Shown: positions 3,103-61,880 of the stretch, piece by piece
How the letters are laid out: every line of letters begins with the position of its first letter
How positions within the stretch are numbered: the first letter of the stretch is position 1
NCBI GenBank assembly: GCA_001773575.1
Contig: MEXB01000008.1
Span: forward strand, 2,141-66,140
Length of the DNA: 64,000 nt
Origin: Candidatus Adlerbacteria bacterium RIFOXYC1_FULL_48_26
Lineage (GTDB): Bacteria; Patescibacteriota; Minisyncoccia; Phycocordibacterales; SBAW01
Direction: 5' to 3'
Translations under genes and position numbers: made by a program
Notes under the pieces: generated by a model
Database searches by the model: none
What the model was told of the DNA's origin: nothing
What the model saw: the letters and a program-made list of their open reading frames with translations, nothing else

Positions 3103-3972
3103 AAATGCTCGGACTTGGCGCAGTGCCTCAGTTTTGTTTTTAACCCAGCGGATATCTTCGCGACGTTTAAACCAGCGCATCTGGCGCTTTACGTATCCAA
3201 GCTCGCTACGCACGAGTTGTTCAACAAGTTCTGCCTTGGTAATTTTTTTATCCAAGTATGCGAGCAGGGGAATAAGTTCAAACCCTAATGCCGCGATATG
3301 TTTCTTTGAGAGTGATGTGCGAAGTTTTTTGGCTTCACGAAGCATCGCATTGAGACGATTTGTAACACCAGCGCGAATTGCTTTTTCATGTTTTGCCTCA
3401 GTGGGGCGGAGACCGAGCCATAGTACTTCGTAGGGAGAGTCTGAAATAAGTTCAGGTACGTTTCCGATAGCCTTTGCGATTTCTATTGCGCGAACGAGGC
3501 GTGCAGGATTTTTTGCATCAATACGTGCGGCTGTTTTCGCATCCAATTTTTTAAGCATAGAAAAGAGCTGGGCAGGAGTTTTCTTTGCCAGACTTGCTCG
3601 CAACTTTTTATTTGGCTCAACTTCAGGAAGGGAGAAACCACGAAGAAGTGAATCTGCGTAAAATCCAGTGCCCCCGACTACAATAGGCACATGCTTTTTC
3701 TTTCCAATGTCAGCAATGATTTTTTCTGCGTGTTTCTTAAACTCACCTGCGCTGTAGAGACGCTTTGGTGAGGCGAATTCTATAAGATGGTGGGGAATAC
3801 CGGCACGCTCTTTTTTATCCGGTACACGGGCAATTGCGGCCAATCCTTTGTAAATCTGCCGCGAGTCTGCGGAAATAACCTCGCCTTTCAGCTTTTGCGC
3901 AAGAAAAATCCCCAACGCCGTTTTCCCCGACGCGGTTGGGCCTACTACTGCAATAACCTTCGACTTATTCAC
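3094..3972 (-). CDS. miaA: tRNA dimethylallyltransferase
   Basis: N-terminal P-loop VIAVVGPTASGKTALG, ..ISADSRQIYKGL.., PHHLID-like motif (PHHLIE). Length 292 aa. Confidence 0.85.
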   Translation of the reverse strand: MNKSKVIAVVGPTASGKTALGIFLAQKLKGEVISADSRQIYKGLAAIARVPDKKERAGIPHHLIEFASPKRLYSAGEFKKHAEKIIADIGKKKHVPIVVGGTGFYADSLLRGFSLPEVEPNKKLRASLAKKTPAQLFSMLKKLDAKTAARIDAKNPARLVRAIEIAKAIGNVPELISDSPYEVLWLGLRPTEAKHEKAIRAGVTNRLNAMLREAKKLRTSLSKKHIAALGFELIPLLAYLDKKITKAELVEQLVRSELGYVKRQMRWFKRREDIRWVKNKTEALRQVRAFLH

Positions 3973-19601: not shown

Positions 19602-19633
19602 CGAAAAACAAAAAGCCCTTCGGGGCTTTTTGT
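19602..19633. terminator. Bidirectional hairpin terminator (caaaaagccc ttcg gggctttttg)
   Basis: 10-bp stem with A/T tracts on both sides; lies between the GIY-YIG gene and tRNA-Gln. Confidence 0.55.
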
Positions 19634-31708: not shown

Positions 31709-31713
31709 TTGTT

Positions 31714-31761
31714 GGGGTCAGACCCCGCAATAACCTAAAATCCGTGTCCTAATATTTTAGG
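31714..31761 (+). repeat. REP-like element copy R1: GGGGTCAGACCCC + 7 nt + cctaaaat..attttagg hairpin module
   Basis: Perfect 13-nt palindrome plus an 8-bp inverted repeat, read directly. Shares the consensus with the copies at 32417, 33002 and 52321. Confidence 0.6.
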
Positions 31762-31816
31762 AAAAATTTGCAGTCTCTTGAACGATCTCATATGTGGTGA
31801 GTGCCATACTTCCTAA

Positions 31817-32410
31817 ATGGCACGAATGCATCGCATCGATCTCGGAGGATATATCTATCACGTAATTAACCGAGCAAACGCTCGGATACGTATATTTCAT
31901 AACGATTCGGATTACAAAGAATTCGAATATCTACTTACAGAAATTAAAGAAACGTATAACGTACGTATTCTTGCGTATGCATTGATGCCAAATCACTGGC
32001 ATCTTTTACTGTATCCACGGAATGATGGCGATATGTCTAAAGCTCTTCATTGGTTAACTACGTCTCATGCGCGTCGGCATCATATTAAAAACAAAACAAT
32101 TGGAAACGGCCATCTTTACCAAGGACGTTACAAGTCGTTCATTATCAAGGGAGACAAGCATCTTTTAACAGTGCTCAAATATATCGAGAGAAATCCAGCA
32201 CGAGCAAGATTGTGTAATGTTGCAGAGGCGTGGCGATGGGGAAGCGCGTTTAGAAGGGTGTGTGGAACAACTGCAGAGCAGCAGTTGCTTGCAGGATTGC
32301 CCCTTGATCTACCGAAAAATTACCTTGAATGGATTAATACCCCCGAACCTTCCGAAGAATTGAAAGCCATTCGTCATTCTGTAAATATGGGCGTACCATA
32401 TGGTGGGTGA
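31817..32410 (+). CDS. REP-associated tyrosine transposase (RAYT; IS200/IS605-like Y1 HUH transposase)
   Basis: HUH motif in PNHWHLLL, catalytic Tyr region GHLYQGRYKS, N-terminal YHVINR. 197 aa, which fits Y1 transposases. Confidence 0.75.
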   Translation: MARMHRIDLGGYIYHVINRANARIRIFHNDSDYKEFEYLLTEIKETYNVRILAYALMPNHWHLLLYPRNDGDMSKALHWLTTSHARRHHIKNKTIGNGHLYQGRYKSFIIKGDKHLLTVLKYIERNPARARLCNVAEAWRWGSAFRRVCGTTAEQQLLAGLPLDLPKNYLEWINTPEPSEELKAIRHSVNMGVPYGG

Positions 32411-32416
32411 GTTTCT

Positions 32417-32464
32417 GGTAAAATACTAGAACACAGTTTATTTGTTTTTATGGGGTCTGACCCC
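32417..32464 (-). repeat. REP-like element copy R2 (inverted orientation relative to R1/R3/R4)
   Basis: The reverse complement reads GGGGTCAGACCCC-ataaaaa-caaataaaCTGTGTTCtagtATTTTAcc. It shares ggaattGGGGTCAG and CTGTGTTC-agt-TTTTAC with R3. Confidence 0.55.
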
Positions 32465-32514
32465 AATTCCCCCGGCTGTTCAGAGTGTAATATCTGCCTT
32501 TACTAAGAAATAGG

Positions 32515-32988
32515 TTGTATATGAAAAATAGATTTTATTTTGATCGTTCTCTCACAAATGGAGCTATTATAATTTTAGCCATTGCTTTTACTGCAATGGC
32601 GGGACTCTCTCTTCTTGGAGGTTTTTCAGAACGACCATTCGTGTTTCTGGGAGTTGTTTATTCTATTCTCATTCTCATTTGGTTTGGATTTGCTTACGGG
32701 ATATATATAAATATTGAAGGAAACAGTCTTCAGGTCACACGTTTTTTTATAAAATGCAAGAAAGTTGATTTAGCGAAAGCAATTTCAATACAGCAAAAGC
32801 CAAAATTCGGAGGTTTAATTTATGAAGTCTCCCTGCAATTCCAAGACAATAATGGAAAAATTGATAGTACTGGTCTAATAAACAAACCCGCTCTAAAAGT
32901 AGAGGAATACGAACGACTCGTTAAACTTGTCATTGAAATAAATAAAGATGTAAGTATTGATCCTGATTTACTTAAGAAAGTTTTTTAA
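32515..32988 (+). CDS. Hypothetical membrane protein, possibly YdbS-like bacterial PH-domain (bPH_2) protein; markedly AT-rich
   Basis: Two N-terminal TM helices followed by a beta-rich ~90-aa domain. Lies between inverted REP copies R2 and R3. Confidence 0.35.
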   Translation: MYMKNRFYFDRSLTNGAIIILAIAFTAMAGLSLLGGFSERPFVFLGVVYSILILIWFGFAYGIYINIEGNSLQVTRFFIKCKKVDLAKAISIQQKPKFGGLIYEVSLQFQDNNGKIDSTGLINKPALKVEEYERLVKLVIEINKDVSIDPDLLKKVF

Positions 32989-33001
32989 TAGAATTGGAAT
33001 T

Positions 33002-33049
33002 GGGGTCAGGCACCTCAATACTCTAAAATCTGTGTTCGAGTTTTTACAG
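33002..33049 (+). repeat. REP-like element copy R3 (degenerate palindrome GGGGTCAGGCACC)
   Basis: The second module is conserved (tctaaaatCTGTGTTCgagtTTTTACag). Confidence 0.5.
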
Positions 33050-51045: not shown

Positions 51046-51449
51046 TCCAATCTGAATCTTTTGAAGAACAAGACGCTTCTGAAAATTGCGACGACATTGT
51101 AACCGACAATGAAAGCCTTCCGCTTGCCCGCAAGCGCTGTATTCCATGCGAAGGGGGAGTAGACCCTCTTACAAAAGAGCAGGCAGAGGAGCTTCTCAAG
51201 CAGCTCAACCCAGAATGGACTCTCGTTGAAGGCGCCGGCCTTCTTGCACGCAGCTTCTCGTTCCCTAACTACAAAAAAACTATCATCTTTGTAAACAAAG
51301 TTGCCGCTATTGCTGAAGGGGAAAACCATCACCCAGATATGACTGTTTCCTACGACAATGTGGGCGTCGAACTCTCCACCCACGCCATAGACGGCCTCTC
51401 CGAAAACGACTTCATAGTGGCAGCGAAGATAGACGAGCTCGAGGCGTAA
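51042..51449 (+). CDS. Pterin-4a-carbinolamine dehydratase (PCD/DCoH) family protein with acidic N-terminal extension
   Basis: Signature E-G-E-N-H-H-P (EGENHHPDM) and the flanking FVNKVAAIAE. Confidence 0.75.
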   Translation: MIQSESFEEQDASENCDDIVTDNESLPLARKRCIPCEGGVDPLTKEQAEELLKQLNPEWTLVEGAGLLARSFSFPNYKKTIIFVNKVAAIAEGENHHPDMTVSYDNVGVELSTHAIDGLSENDFIVAAKIDELEA

Positions 51450-51494
51450 TCTTTCACGATTTTAGAATAATTTTATCTGCCCAAATGCTATACT

Positions 51495-51731
51495 TTGTGG
51501 CATATGAACAAGGCTTTCGAAATATTTCTGAAAGAATTTGCTGAATTTCGTAAAGAAATCTACCAACGATTTGATGGTGTTAGTCATCGCCTTGATGGCA
51601 TTGACCAGAGACTCGATGCCATTGATAGCACTTTAAAACCCTTGGCCAAGGCAGTGGATAAAGACGCAGAAACTATAATCAGTCATGGGCGCCGGATAGG
51701 CCGTATGGAGAAGCGTTTGGGTTTCAAATAG
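51495..51731 (+). CDS. Hypothetical small coiled-coil protein
   Basis: 78 aa, heptad-like R/D/L periodicity. No domain recognised. Confidence 0.3.
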   Translation: MWHMNKAFEIFLKEFAEFRKEIYQRFDGVSHRLDGIDQRLDAIDSTLKPLAKAVDKDAETIISHGRRIGRMEKRLGFK

Positions 51732-51810
51732 CCACATATCTGGACTATGATTTTTTGGGTTTCTAGTATATATTATTGACGTTCGGGACTTGTTTAGCAG
51801 AACAGAAATT

Positions 51811-51883
51811 GGGCCCTTAGCTCATTTGGTAGAGCGCCTCATTTGCAATGAGGAGGTGACCGGTTCGATCCCGGTAGGGTCCA
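51811..51883 (+). tRNA. tRNA-Ala (anticodon TGC) with the G3:U70 identity pair; CCA not encoded
   Basis: Acceptor gggccct/agggtcc (G3:U70 wobble), anticodon loop uuTGCaa, T-loop ggttcgatc. Confidence 0.9.
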
Positions 51884-51890
51884 CAAACAC

Positions 51891-51925
51891 TTGACAAAAG
51901 AACTATATATGTGTATAGTTCTTTT
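51891..51925 (+). promoter_or_regulatory. Consensus promoter (-35 TTGACA 51891-51896; 17-nt spacer; -10 TATAGT 51914-51919) overlapping a perfect 12-bp inverted repeat (aaaagaactata-N6-tatagttctttt, 51896-51925)
   Basis: Hexamers, spacer length and the palindrome read directly. The right palindrome arm contains the -10 element. Starts 8 nt after the tRNA-Ala 3' end. Confidence 0.5.
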
Positions 51926-51956
51926 GTGTTTTAGGATAGTTCCCAAGGAGGCAGTA

Positions 51957-52220
51957 ATGCAGACGAGTCAGCAAGTTATCGAGCAAGCCCTTCGCAATGC
52001 GGAGACTGCGGAACCGGGCATTCAGCCCGCGATTCTGATGAACCTGAACATCGACCACACCAAGGTCGCCGAGTACCAGCGCACGTATCTGAACGATGCC
52101 TGGGCGCCGAAGACCAAGGAGCTGATGGACAGCGGCTTCATCATCTTCCGCATCCAGACCGAGCTCGGCCTCAACGGCCACATCACCTACATCTACATGG
52201 CGAAGATGAAGGCCAACTAA
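51957..52220 (+). CDS. Hypothetical protein (87 aa), GC-rich
   Basis: AGGAGG RBS 6 nt upstream of ATG. Driven by the promoter/operator above and followed by a strong terminator. The ORF-track N-terminal extension overlaps the promoter and was rejected. Confidence 0.5.
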   Translation: MQTSQQVIEQALRNAETAEPGIQPAILMNLNIDHTKVAEYQRTYLNDAWAPKTKELMDSGFIIFRIQTELGLNGHITYIYMAKMKAN

Positions 52221-52237
52221 CGCCGAACGACGGCGAC

Positions 52238-52290
52238 AAGCCCTACGGAAGAAGCACTACGCTTCTACAACGTAGGGCTTCTTTCTTTTT
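52238..52290 (+). terminator. Rho-independent terminator (aagccctacg...cgtagggctt + CTTTCTTTTT)
   Basis: 10-bp outer stem with an internal sub-hairpin, followed by a T-tract. Confidence 0.55.
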
Positions 52291-52320
52291 CACCAGTTCA
52301 ATACTCCTATGACCAGAATC

Positions 52321-52369
52321 GGGGTCAGACCCCACAAAATCCTAAATAATGTTTTGTAATTCAGTTTGG
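52321..52369 (+). repeat. REP-like element copy R4 (GGGGTCAGACCCC-acaaaat-cctaaataatgttttgtaattcagtttgg)
   Basis: Perfect 13-nt palindrome identical to R1/R2. The second module is degenerate. Confidence 0.55.
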
Positions 52370-52428
52370 ATTTATCTAAAACAAAAAGAAAAGAGCCGCT
52401 TGTGGGCGGCTCTTGGAGAGAGGGTCTT

Positions 52429-52683
52429 TTACTCAGATTTCTCTGATTTGCTGTGGAAGCTTTCCCATCCGGCGGGGAAGCAGTACAGGTGCGCGTGTTC
52501 GATGGCGTTGCCCTGGACGTGGGCTGCGCTGACGGCAGGCCTGGGTTTGGGGCAGTGGCCGGCGGCGACGCCCATCTGGTACGTGCGCACGAGAGGCTCG
52601 TCTTTTGGGAGAAACCCTTTAGGAACACCATCGCATGCGGACAGCAGACACGCAGCGCCTGCGAGAAGAAGGATCTTGTACAA
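52429..52683 (-). CDS. Small lipoprotein (84 aa; lipobox LLSAC), TTG start, GC-rich
   Basis: Signal peptide MYKILLLAGAACLLSAC. AGGGAG RBS 6 nt upstream of TTG. Conflicting overlapping ORFs on both strands were rejected. Confidence 0.45.
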   Translation of the reverse strand: MYKILLLAGAACLLSACDGVPKGFLPKDEPLVRTYQMGVAAGHCPKPRPAVSAAHVQGNAIEHAHLYCFPAGWESFHSKSEKSE

Positions 52684-52785
52684 AAAGAACTCCCTGAGTT
52701 GGAACTAGAACTAAGAAATTGGGAACGAAGGACACCTTAACATACATCAAAAATCTGTCATACTAGTGGCAGAAAGGAGGTTCAG

Positions 52786-52974
52786 ATGAGATTTCTCATT
52801 ACATGTGTTGCTCTAGGGCTGCTGTTGAGTGCGTGTGAAAACACGCCATTCCAATCTGTTTACCCTGAGGATGAGCGGTACCAAGCTTCATGCAGGGCTC
52901 CTGGTCTGTTCGACATCATGAGTCTTCGCATGAAGGCGACCTATTGCACCAAAGGCTACACACCTCCACGCTGA
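52786..52974 (+). CDS. Small lipoprotein (62 aa; lipobox LLLSAC)
   Basis: Signal peptide MRFLITCVALGLLLSAC. AGGAGG RBS 8 nt upstream. Divergent from the 52429-52683 lipoprotein. Confidence 0.45.
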   Translation: MRFLITCVALGLLLSACENTPFQSVYPEDERYQASCRAPGLFDIMSLRMKATYCTKGYTPPR

Positions 52975-52978
52975 GTGA

Positions 52979-53161
52979 TCAGTTGGAGGTGTTTTCTTTT
53001 GAGCAGGGAAGATGAACGCTGCACAGCGCTGAGGCTACATTGTCTGTAACTCCTACCTTAAATGCATGGAGAGGGGAGCCTGGCTCTGCGCTTTCTGCCA
53101 GGCTTGCAGCAACGCCTCCCATCAAGGCAACAATTAGTAGAGAGAAGAAAATCTTTTTCAT
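52979..53161 (-). CDS. Small secreted protein (start trimmed to the MKKIFF signal peptide), low confidence
   Basis: Signal peptide MKKIFFSLLIVALMGGVAASLA. No clear RBS. Confidence 0.3.
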   Translation of the reverse strand: MKKIFFSLLIVALMGGVAASLAESAEPGSPLHAFKVGVTDNVASALCSVHLPCSKENTSN

Positions 53162-53208
53162 AACTTTTCTGTGGGTTTCCTCTATGTTATCATGCCAACT
53201 AACGATAT

Positions 53209-53991
53209 ATGGAGGAACATGCTGGTTTACACATAGCTCTCTCGGCAGAGCGTTTGGGCACATTTTTAGGTCTGCCTATCACCAACACCCTTCTTTCCGC
53301 ATGGCTGGTTATGTCAGTCCTTATTATCATCGCAATTGTTGTTGGCCGTAAACCAACGCTTATTCCTGGCAAAGTACAGAACTTCTTTGAGCTTATATTC
53401 GAGTTCGTTATCGGCTATATGAGCGATATCTTCGGCAACCGCAAGCGCGCCCTTACGTTTTTCCCATTTATCGCAACGATCTTCCTGTTTATCGCCACTT
53501 CCAACCTTTTCGACTTTATGCCTTTCGTTGGAAGCATCACCTTTACACACGAAGGGGAGACTATGTCCCTGTTCCGCCCAGTTAACACAGACTTAAACGT
53601 CACCCTCGCGCTCGCAATCATTTCTGTGATTACTATTGAAGTCGCAGGCATCGTAGCGCTCGGCTTCTGGAAATACATGAACAAGTTCTTTACCTTCAGC
53701 GGAAAGACCATCGGCCAGCGTTTCCTTAACCTTACAGTCGGCCTTATCGAGTTTGTATCTGAAATGTCGCGCTTTATCTCGTTCTCATTCCGTCTCTTCG
53801 GAAACATCTTCGCAGGCGAAGTATTGCTCGCGGTAGTGGCGTACTTTATGCCCTACCTCCTCCCAGTTCCCCTTATGGGCTTTGAAACCTTCGTCGGCGT
53901 TGTGCAAGCCGCTGTGTTTGCCATGCTCACCCTCTTTTTCCTCAAGCTCGCAATGACCCCGGCCCACGGCTCGGGCGAGGCGCACCACTAA
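53209..53991 (+). CDS. atpB: F0F1 ATP synthase subunit a
   Basis: Five TM helices with the essential Arg in SFSFRLFGNIFAGE. Confidence 0.85.
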   Translation: MEEHAGLHIALSAERLGTFLGLPITNTLLSAWLVMSVLIIIAIVVGRKPTLIPGKVQNFFELIFEFVIGYMSDIFGNRKRALTFFPFIATIFLFIATSNLFDFMPFVGSITFTHEGETMSLFRPVNTDLNVTLALAIISVITIEVAGIVALGFWKYMNKFFTFSGKTIGQRFLNLTVGLIEFVSEMSRFISFSFRLFGNIFAGEVLLAVVAYFMPYLLPVPLMGFETFVGVVQAAVFAMLTLFFLKLAMTPAHGSGEAHH

Positions 53992-61038: not shown

Positions 61039-61145
61039 CCACTCGACAAATCTCTTTTTCGTGTAATACTTGCCCTCGTTGTGCTCTTTCACATGTGCGC
61101 AGCGTCTGTTAACTTTTCAAAACTATTTCCCCTGAGGAGATGCTC

Positions 61146-61880
61146 ATGATTAGGGTATTAGGCGTAGCTGCCTTTGTTCTGCTGTTCTTGGCAGGATGTG
61201 TCAGCGATGGTGGTGGTCCTGTAACAAGCTCCGCCTACGGACCAGCCGTCGTGGAATCCTGCGGTGGCGATGATGAATGCGCTGTGATGGTCGCCGACCG
61301 TCCCAACGAGGTGCTCTACTTCGCGCCCGGTGCGTCGTGGGCCGCCGGCCCGCTCTACACCGTTCCGTGGGAGCCAACCTACATGCTTCCGTACCGCGTC
61401 CGCTACTACAATGGCTGGGGCGGTACTGTCGTGACCAACACGGTCTGGCGCGATGTCGCCGTTCGTCGGGGCTGGAATCGCTCCGTCGTCGTCGCGCATA
61501 ATGCTCCGAGGGGTGTCATGCCGTTCCGCGGCAACCCCTCGATACGTTTGTCGGACGGTCGTTCGATCGCCTACAACAATCGTCACAGCGCCGTCCACCA
61601 GGTTCGTTTGAACCAGGGTCGCAATTTCACGCCGCGTCCTCCGGTTCACGCTGGTGTGACGCCGCGGCACACAGCTCCGCCGCAGCACACGCGGCCGCCG
61701 CAGCATACGACCCCGTCTCGGCCGCCGACGCGTACGACGGCTCCGCCTTCGCGGCCTCCGCCGCGTGCAACGCCTCCACAACGTCCGCCGCAGCACGTCA
61801 CCACGCCACGTCCTGCTCCTCGGCCGGCCCCGCCGCCTCAGCGTCGCAACTGCGGTGGGCACAACCAGCCCAAGTGCTGA
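61146..61880 (+). CDS. Lipoprotein (lipobox LAGC) with Pro/Thr/Arg-rich repetitive C-terminal half; very GC-rich
   Basis: GAGGAG RBS 6 nt upstream of the second ATG. MIRVLGVAAFVLLFLAGC. The Arg-rich antisense ORF 61158-61862 was rejected as a GC artefact. Confidence 0.45.
   Translation: MIRVLGVAAFVLLFLAGCVSDGGGPVTSSAYGPAVVESCGGDDECAVMVADRPNEVLYFAPGASWAAGPLYTVPWEPTYMLPYRVRYYNGWGGTVVTNTVWRDVAVRRGWNRSVVVAHNAPRGVMPFRGNPSIRLSDGRSIAYNNRHSAVHQVRLNQGRNFTPRPPVHAGVTPRHTAPPQHTRPPQHTTPSRPPTRTTAPPSRPPPRATPPQRPPQHVTTPRPAPRPAPPPQRRNCGGHNQPKC

Follow-up and report, generated by a model that had tools for sequence, protein, structure and literature searches.

A terminator-like hairpin overlaps the putative promoter of orf87 behind tRNA-Ala in an Adlerbacteria genome

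In the genome of Candidatus Adlerbacteria bacterium RIFOXYC1_FULL_48_26, an uncultivated bacterium of the candidate phyla radiation (CPR) with a G+C content (GC) of 48%, the gene of the alanine tRNA with anticodon UGC is separated from atpB by an interval of 1.3 kb. The first gene of this interval, orf87, encodes a protein of 87 amino acids (aa), and its putative promoter is overlapped by a perfect inverted repeat. Here, we analysed this interval, the cassette, within a 64-kb stretch of DNA, which we call the window. We lean towards an explanation in which the palindrome is the terminator of tRNA-Ala fused with the promoter of orf87, and not an operator, and in which orf87 and its signals form a module that was relocated into a variable spacer. 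The form and the position of the hairpin, its counterparts in related genomes and the conservation of the module in the orf87 family carry this explanation. Related loci are designated by the letter L and a number, and the coordinates of the features are collected in Table 1.

Results and Discussion

The palindrome and the promoter of orf87

The promoter of orf87 is of the sigma-70 type as judged from the DNA, with two recognisable hexamers spaced by 17 nt and, 3' of them, an open reading frame (ORF) that has a Shine-Dalgarno sequence. It is the sole site in the window that matches the consensus at 11 or more of the 12 positions. Such a match is by itself not proof of a promoter, because random sequence gives about 0.9 of them on average. 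The promoters of the orf87 family are more telling: in an alignment of ten, which share the form TTGAC(A/T)-17 nt-TAT..T, the TTGAC columns and the TAT..T columns of the -10 hexamer are invariant. An earlier note on this DNA had recognised the same promoter and placed it 8 nt past tRNA-Ala; the distance from the end of the tRNA to the start of the -35 hexamer is 6-7 nt.

The inverted repeat was described in that note as a perfect palindrome of 12 bp with the -10 element embedded in its right arm. It is indeed perfect and its 3' arm does hold the -10 hexamer, and the arms, ACAAAAGAACTATA and TATAGTTCTTTTGT, are 14 bp long. No other short-spacer inverted repeat in the window is as long, and a length of 14 bp was reached by only one of 40 Markov-random sequences of 64 kb. 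As RNA, the palindrome forms a 15-bp hairpin of -17.2 kcal/mol (z = -4.9), which is preceded by the A-tract ACAAAA and followed, directly 3' of the stem, by the U-tract UUUUGUGUUUU, which extends to about position 51935. The hairpin begins 10 nt past tRNA-Ala and lies on the same strand. Its energy is within the range of the other terminator hairpins of the window (-15.7 to -22.8 kcal/mol), with which it also has the flanks ACAAAA...UUUUGU in common. A terminator of like architecture and energy, ACAAAAAGCCC-ttcg-GGGCTTTTTGT, is located at 19608, 58 nt 3' of tRNA-Gln.

Related loci place a terminator or a promoter at the same point. In the closest relative, L017, a canonical terminator, ACAAAAAACCTCC-tta-GGGAGGTTTTTTGT, of -19.5 kcal/mol begins 5 nt past the same tRNA-Ala, and in L021 the promoter TTGATT-16 nt-TATAGT, with no hairpin, is found at that offset; the window looks like both fused. 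A scan for consensus terminators gave no other candidate between the co-directional 78-aa ORF upstream of the tRNA (cc78), tRNA-Ala and orf87. Among the loci that carry homologues of orf87, L098 has an 11-bp inverted repeat and TTTTT at the corresponding place in its promoter, right behind a gene of the same orientation. L112, which holds the closest homologue, has a divergent gene upstream and an inverted repeat of only 5 bp. The palindrome of the window is identical in all nine contigs of the same organism and in L117.

When transcribed from upstream, the palindrome would fold into an A-tract, a 15-bp hairpin and a U-tract, and this structure would stop, in part or fully, transcription that comes from tRNA-Ala and the co-directional genes before it. 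The descending arm of this hairpin would carry the -10 hexamer of orf87, and an RNA polymerase that initiates about 7 nt past the -10 box would yield an orf87 mRNA without this hairpin. The same 34 bp would thus be both the terminator of the upstream unit and the promoter of the next, and a repressor would not be required. The palindrome can be compared with the bidirectional Rho-independent terminators with A-tract and U-tract that follow tRNA genes: it is a hairpin between an A-run and a U-run right behind a co-directional tRNA, it has the ACAAAA...TTTTGT flanks of other terminators in the window, and its position is that of the tRNA-Ala terminator of L017. It differs from them in a stem that is AU-rich and unusually long, and in a 3' arm that doubles as a -10 box. 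We infer from this comparison that the palindrome works like a terminator, and we do not claim its membership of that class as proven.

Several points weigh against this explanation. Two of the 15 pairs of the stem are G-C, which is not the G+C-rich stem of an intrinsic terminator, and the scan for consensus terminators missed the hairpin because it needs at least three such pairs; AU-rich stems are poor terminators in model organisms. In L111, an inverted repeat of 8 bp occupies the same promoter position without a U-tract, so the palindromes embedded in promoters of the orf87 family may have another role. Inverted repeats of at least 8 bp, unrelated in sequence, are found in 3 of about 13 family promoters, which is above chance, and termination does not fully explain this excess. 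As to the relocation, the interval holds no integrase, and the 3' end of the tRNA is not duplicated. The extreme G+C content at third codon positions (GC3) of orf87, 0.86 in a genome of 48% GC, could come from selection at synonymous sites or from a foreign origin.

The operator reading

The earlier note had proposed tight repressor control, as is known for toxin-antitoxin, phage-repressor or bacteriocin-type units. A dimeric repressor, encoded elsewhere or orf87 itself, would bind the palindrome, occlude the -35 and -10 boxes and keep orf87 off until induction. The locus does resemble the operator-promoters of such units in that a perfect palindrome lies over the core promoter of a small gene, where it covers the promoter spacer and the -10 box; no repeat of this kind is longer in the 64 kb, and inverted repeats overlap the -10 box also in L098 (11 bp) and in L111 (8 bp, no U-tract). 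However, a cognate regulator, a partner gene, conservation of the site among orthologous loci and domain matches, which belong to such units, were not found at orf87. No regulator gene is adjacent, the five small proteins have no match to a DNA-binding domain (no HTH, RHH or AbrB) or to a defence or toxin-antitoxin domain, and the predicted fold of orf87 includes neither a helix-turn-helix nor a ribbon-helix-helix. There is no second copy of the half-site, or of the palindrome, within the window. The palindromes of the window, L098 and L111 are unrelated in sequence though their proteins are 61-68% identical, and at the promoters of L112, L009, L013, L098 and L111 the site is absent or unrelated, with essentially none at L112. 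Perfect arms of 14 bp also exceed the length that a protein needs to recognise DNA. With this terminator-like form and the lack of conservation, we regard an operator as unlikely, and repressor control of the proposed type found no support.

Further readings were rejected. An origin in a toxin-antitoxin, defence or phage system finds no PADLOC, PHROG, NCBIfam or Pfam match among the five small proteins and no relatives in IMG/VR. A type II toxin-antitoxin module requires two co-transcribed small genes, and orf87 is monocistronic, alone between its promoter and its terminator, as are most of its homologues. If the palindrome were a bidirectional promoter, the minus strand should have a -35 hexamer, and about 3 of 6 bases match at that position as judged by eye.

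The orf87 module

The gene orf87 has a GC of 57%, at a background of about 47%, and its GC3 of 0.86 compares with a window mean of 0.465. It is the GC-rich ORF of 87 aa with an AGGAGG ribosome-binding site that the earlier note had read from the DNA, and this reading is borne out. A profile search of 1.84 billion representatives gave a family of 54 clusters at 50% identity, nearly all of 80-125 aa, which is seen here solely on metagenome contigs of the CPR/Parcubacteria type; no homologues were found in 2.9 million viral contigs (IMG/VR). We compared 15 loci of this family beyond the window, in which the unit is monocistronic or close to it; the contig of L118 has no sequence 5' of the gene. 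In most family loci the gene is GC-richer than its flanks. Substitutions relative to four homologues fall on codon positions in the order 3>1>2. These substitutions, the homologues, the profile family and an AlphaFold (AF2) pLDDT of 90 mark orf87 as a real coding gene.

The AF2 model, made with an alignment of 55 sequences, has the topology α-β-β-α-β-β, and by this model orf87 is a small soluble α/β protein of an uncharacterised family. Sequence searches of Pfam, NCBIfam, PHROG, PADLOC and the PDB gave no match for orf87 or for the 55 aligned family members. A weak match of orf87 to DUF6494 (Pfam, E = 0.022) was rejected; it is reproduced in none of the 55. The profile search of the PDB with the family was empty as well, and a Foldseek search of the model against viral models returned small phage proteins of the DUF1737-like type, none of them significant (E ≥ 0.07). 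The confident model came with no family or PDB match. Its similarity to DUF1737-type phage proteins and to the β-α-β-β core of GNAT acetyltransferases is below significance and is not accompanied by sequence similarity; unlike the GNAT enzymes, orf87 has no acetyl-CoA motif and is half their size. The function of orf87 is not readable from its fold, since the fold matches are non-significant. The conserved polar residues R65, Q67, T68, E69, H75, T77, Y80 and K83 are located on strands β3 and β4 of the model, and this patch could serve in binding or catalysis.

The gene is followed by the strong intrinsic terminator that the earlier note had reported, a long hairpin of two helices with a T-rich run. 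Across 11 loci, 91% of the cells of this 3' hairpin are paired and seven pairs have changes on both sides, a covariation that was reached by none of 500 shuffles. The two-helix hairpin and its U-rich tail are kept even where the proteins are only about 30-45% identical. The invariant TTGAC and -10 columns of the ten promoters, together with the covarying 3' hairpin, indicate that the module is homologous across loci. With its near-consensus promoter, strong Shine-Dalgarno sequence, 87-aa ORF and long terminator hairpin, the orf87 unit would be a self-contained expression module, and these signals suggest that it is built for strong, stable expression.

Further elements are found around the promoters of the family. 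The motif TGAACCATTACG lies about 10-25 nt 5' of the -35 box in L009, L112, L113 and L109, and partially in L099, L104 and L013; an UP element or the binding site of an activator are possible roles. The promoter of the window lacks this motif, and the 3' end of the tRNA sits in its place. The 5' untranslated regions of the homologues in L112, L009, L013, L111, L098 and L103 have a small hairpin of variable sequence, 15-25 nt before the Shine-Dalgarno sequence, which is often preceded by AACC (for example GCGCA..TGCGC, GCTCA..TGAGC, GCCC..GGGC and GCACCA..TGGTGC). In the window, this small hairpin is reduced to a 3-bp version.

Placement behind tmRNA and tRNA-Ala

The gene for transfer-messenger RNA (tmRNA), ssrA, lies upstream of the orf87 homologue and on the same strand in five loci, at distances from 85 nt, in L103, to 3.8 kb (the others are L099, L104, L105 and L009). 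A further locus, L109, encodes a protein with 43% identity and has tRNA-Ala(UGC) about 780 nt 5' of its gene. In all, 7 of 15 family loci with enough upstream sequence have the gene at most 4 kb 3' of tmRNA (five loci) or of tRNA-Ala(UGC) (two loci), in the same orientation. Copies of the 3' end of tmRNA (CACCATCTCCAC) are found about 150 nt before the homologue in L099 and L104; this fits insertions between ssrA and its original downstream neighbour. The native site of the family would be immediately 3' of ssrA, and the module of the window would be a relocation by which the -35 box came to lie 6-7 nt past tRNA-Ala. This placement beside alanine-accepting RNAs reflects either function or a bias of recombination or integration at tRNA-like 3' ends.

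Short elements of about 170-270 nt, one or two per locus, separate ssrA from the orf87 homologue (L104 3372-3855, L099 ~3700-3853 and L009 2174-2274). Each has inverted copies of the 3' end of tmRNA (GTGGAGATGG...CACCATCTCCAC) at its borders; the elements share CACTTAGTG motifs inside and look like insertions similar to miniature inverted-repeat transposable elements (MITEs) or to tRNAs. Right after tmRNA in L009, on the opposite strand, there is a match to the LOOT RNA that stays below threshold (37.6 bits, gathering score 46.4).

Integrases preferentially target tRNA and tmRNA genes at their 3' ends, which are hot spots of integration. The module, with or without the lipoprotein genes described below, might accordingly be cargo of an island, namely a decayed integrative element that targeted the 3' ends of tRNA-Ala and tmRNA, with GC-rich codons of foreign origin. 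The cassette is like the islets that flank tRNA and tmRNA genes in its variable content beside a conserved tRNA, in two genes of atypical composition, and in family members that lie by tmRNA, where duplicates of the tmRNA end occur. The placement of seven of 15 loci, the GC3 of orf87, the variability of the locus among relatives and an integrase/transposase of the rve family that adjoins the gene in L112 would all suit such an element. The window differs from these islets, however, in having an interval of only 1.3 kb, no integrase ORF (51885-53208) and no att-like direct repeat; the 3'-terminal 22-mer of tRNA-Ala occurs once in the window with up to three mismatches allowed. The position of the gene in L099 and L104, past the distal copy of the tmRNA end, puts it on the chromosomal side of the insertions and not within them. 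Relatives among the 2.9 million viral contigs are lacking, and the enrichment in GC3 is also seen in homologues that are 62-74% identical, which argues against a single recent transfer. An origin as island cargo is thus improbable in our view. A 7-bp repeat, CCACAAA, found at the end of the tRNA and inside the repetitive extragenic palindromic (REP) element of the cassette, was judged coincidental, as the other REP copies differ there.

Another possibility is that the hairpin terminates leakily and that transcription of orf87 has two sources, its own promoter and read-through from the strongly transcribed tRNA or tmRNA gene upstream, with the palindrome tuning this coupling by promoter occlusion or transcriptional interference. 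Weak termination is suggested by the AU-rich stem, the homologue of L103, so close behind tmRNA, has no recognisable promoter, and the placement behind stable-RNA genes recurs. In most family loci, however, a canonical terminator stands between the promoter and the gene that precedes it, and we consider such dual control very unlikely. Equally speculative, and hardly favoured by us, is the idea that the orf87 family is a small, Parcubacteria-specific and abundantly expressed partner of the alanine-accepting RNAs tmRNA and tRNA-Ala, for example in trans-translation or ribosome rescue in genomes as reduced as these. It would explain why the gene is natively the first after ssrA down to 47% identity, why it arrived after tRNA-Ala(UGC) in two independent lineages, and why its expression signals are conserved and its synonymous sites strongly constrained. 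If it were true, the hairpins embedded in the promoters would couple the expression of orf87 to the transcription of the upstream stable RNA.

The variable spacer between tRNA-Ala and atpB

The preferred explanation, a terminator fused with the promoter of a relocated module, places this module in a spacer of variable content. With AtpB as bait, 80 related loci were retrieved and the neighbourhoods of tRNA-Ala and atpB were compared. The nearest relatives that keep the tRNA (L017, L021 and L019) have retained the genes of Ddl and/or pterin dehydratase (PCD), tRNA-Ala(UGC) and atpB. Their tRNA-to-atpB intervals of 4.4, 5.8 and 2.5 kb, respectively, hold unrelated genes of secreted, membrane or PAS-domain proteins and extra tRNAs. 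None of the loci retrieved around AtpB contains orf87 or the lipoprotein genes lipo84 and lipo62, and the homologues of orf87 sit elsewhere in other genomes. The comparison with four relatives that have the same tRNA-Ala(UGC) and different content agrees with an insertion, as the earlier note had suspected: the cassette is not conserved, and the differing content points to a hypervariable, insertion-prone spacer in Adlerbacteria. In the window, the interval holds the orf87 module, one REP element, a conserved and a divergent orphan lipoprotein gene, and the stump of a DUF5667 gene. The whole region had been called compositionally distinct; this is true of orf87 and lipo84 (57-63% GC against about 47%), and the remaining interval is ordinary. 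An Rfam scan of 51400-53300 with E values up to 1 matched the tRNA as the sole known RNA family.

Table 1 Features of the tRNA-Ala-to-atpB interval and its borders (positions in the window).
Feature	Position	Strand	Basis or remark
tRNA-Ala (anticodon UGC), CCA not encoded	51811..51884 (end, 51883/4)	+	ARAGORN; Rfam tRNA, 65.8 bits
Putative sigma-70-type promoter, TTGACA-17 nt-TATAGT	51891..51919 (-35, 51891-51896; -10, 51914-51919)	+	11/12 consensus match
Perfect inverted repeat, 14-bp arms ACAAAAGAACTATA (51894-51907) and TATAGTTCTTTTGT (51914-51927), 6-nt spacer	51894..51927	+	Proposed tRNA-Ala terminator
Shine-Dalgarno sequence AAGGAGG	51945..51951	+	5 nt before ATG; read from sequence
orf87, predicted cytoplasmic protein of 87 aa, unannotated Parcubacteria-type family, GenBank A2419_01925	51957..52220	+	Homologues with 62-74% identity
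orf87 terminator, long two-helix hairpin and T-rich run	52238..52291 (hairpin, 52238-52280)	+	-24.9 kcal/mol, z = -7.8
REP element, core GGGGTCAGACCCC	52316..52358	+	Four copies aligned; between convergent orf87 and lipo84
lipo84 terminator	52391..52414	-	-15.7 kcal/mol; conserved in L116
lipo84, predicted lipoprotein of 84 aa, TTG start, lipobox LLSAC (residues 13-17), three further Cys, 63% GC	52429..52683	-	
lipo62 weak promoter-like site, TTAACA-16-CATACT, and Shine-Dalgarno sequence AAAGGAGG	52737..52780	+	9/12 consensus match
lipo62, predicted lipoprotein of 62 aa, lipobox LLLSAC (residues 12-17)	52786..52974	+	ORF and lipobox
sec60, signal peptide and about 20 residues, 60 aa	52979..53161	-	tblastn
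atpB (F0 subunit a), conserved right-hand anchor	53209..53991	+	Conserved in relatives

Upstream of the tRNA, cc78 (51495-51731, +) is a coiled-coil ORF of 78 aa with the pterin dehydratase gene on its other side. Its matches in the retrieved loci are confined to contigs of the same organism, and it has only weak PHROG matches to families of unknown function (best E = 3e-4).

The two divergent small lipoproteins and the small secreted protein that the earlier note had listed are present as ORFs. The lipoprotein genes are 102 nt apart; their lipoboxes were read from the translations, and the match to the LPAM_1 profile is only marginal. A homologue of lipo84, P0078, has 73% aa identity. The lipo84 block, including its 5' region and terminator, is 78% identical in nucleotide sequence to L116 over 405 nt; in that locus the homologue lies within 2 kb of tRNA-Ala(UGC) among different neighbours, and the region between lipo84 and lipo62 is conserved as well. 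The GenBank gene A2419_01930 (95 aa, 52453-52740, +) lies on the strand opposite to lipo84 and is probably a wrong-strand call; it is doubtful because the minus-strand lipo84 shares with L116 a homologue, the 5' region and the terminator. The gene lipo62 is an orphan, in a cluster of a single sequence from this organism, and is absent from the GenBank annotation; it has a Shine-Dalgarno sequence, and a hairpin and T-run overlap its stop codon. For the third gene, sec60, the signal peptide stands and the idea of a complete small secreted protein does not. By tblastn, only its residues 1-42 align with proteins of 161 aa (L017) and 172 aa (L021), whose genes are divergent to atpB. These homologues carry DUF5667, and sec60 lacks the body of this domain. 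We take it to be a truncated remnant of a DUF5667 secreted protein, because only those residues align.

REP elements and other features of the window

The REP copy that the earlier note had placed after orf87 is one of four related repeats. The four, which contain GGGGTCAGACCCC, align over about 45 nt within the 64 kb. A Y1_Tnp (IS200-like) gene at 31817-32410 (E = 1.8e-19) lies between inverted REPs at 31712-31766 and 32412-32466. A Y1 transposase gene flanked by inverted REPs is the hallmark of a REP-associated tyrosine transposase (RAYT; PMC2817692), and we compared the window with RAYT systems (PMC2817692, PMC3337134). The arrangement in the window supports the REP copy beside orf87 as genuine, and this copy would derive from the RAYT transposase of the genome. 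Convergent genes are the usual habitat of REPs. As in other REP/RAYT systems, a short extragenic palindromic repeat lies between convergent genes and the Y1 gene has its inverted REPs (31712-32466); the window differs in having only four copies in 64 kb and in its host, a CPR bacterium. The REP marks the junction of the orf87 module and the lipo84 block shared with L116. Among the papers searched, none mentions RAYT together with Patescibacteria.

An additional REP is located at 32996-33045, and between two REP copies there is a 155-aa ORF (32521-32988, +) with a GC3 of 0.23 and no Pfam match. An MGS-like domain (E = 1.4e-11) is encoded by an ORF of 211 aa (988-1623, -) whose GC3 of 0.84 makes it a second strongly GC3-rich gene beside a tRNA; the ORF lies just after tRNA-Trp (861-934) and a hairpin at 953-981. 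The antisense ORF over this gene (1006-1638) is probably spurious. At 61140-61880, long ORFs in both orientations and with no Pfam match occupy a GC-rich stretch.

Conclusions

Each component of this locus is of a known kind: a sigma-70-type promoter, a hairpin terminator, a REP/RAYT system, lipoproteins and a variable region that flanks a tRNA. Less usual, as read from the DNA, are a terminator-like hairpin that completely overlaps a putative promoter, and the recurrent placement of orf87 after tmRNA or tRNA-Ala, together with its strongly conserved 3' hairpin and its GC3. The locus is real and largely ordinary, with one modestly interesting protein family, and it does not overturn current understanding. 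With it, a REP/RAYT system is on record for an Adlerbacteria genome, and a probable wrong-strand gene call in GenBank is corrected. What looks like a textbook operator in raw sequence can be a terminator, and in the packed signals of an ultra-small CPR genome 34 bp can plausibly close one transcript and open the next. The orf87 family, conserved, apparently highly expressed and found repeatedly behind tmRNA or tRNA-Ala, would be inexpensive to study by metaproteomics, structure determination and pull-downs.

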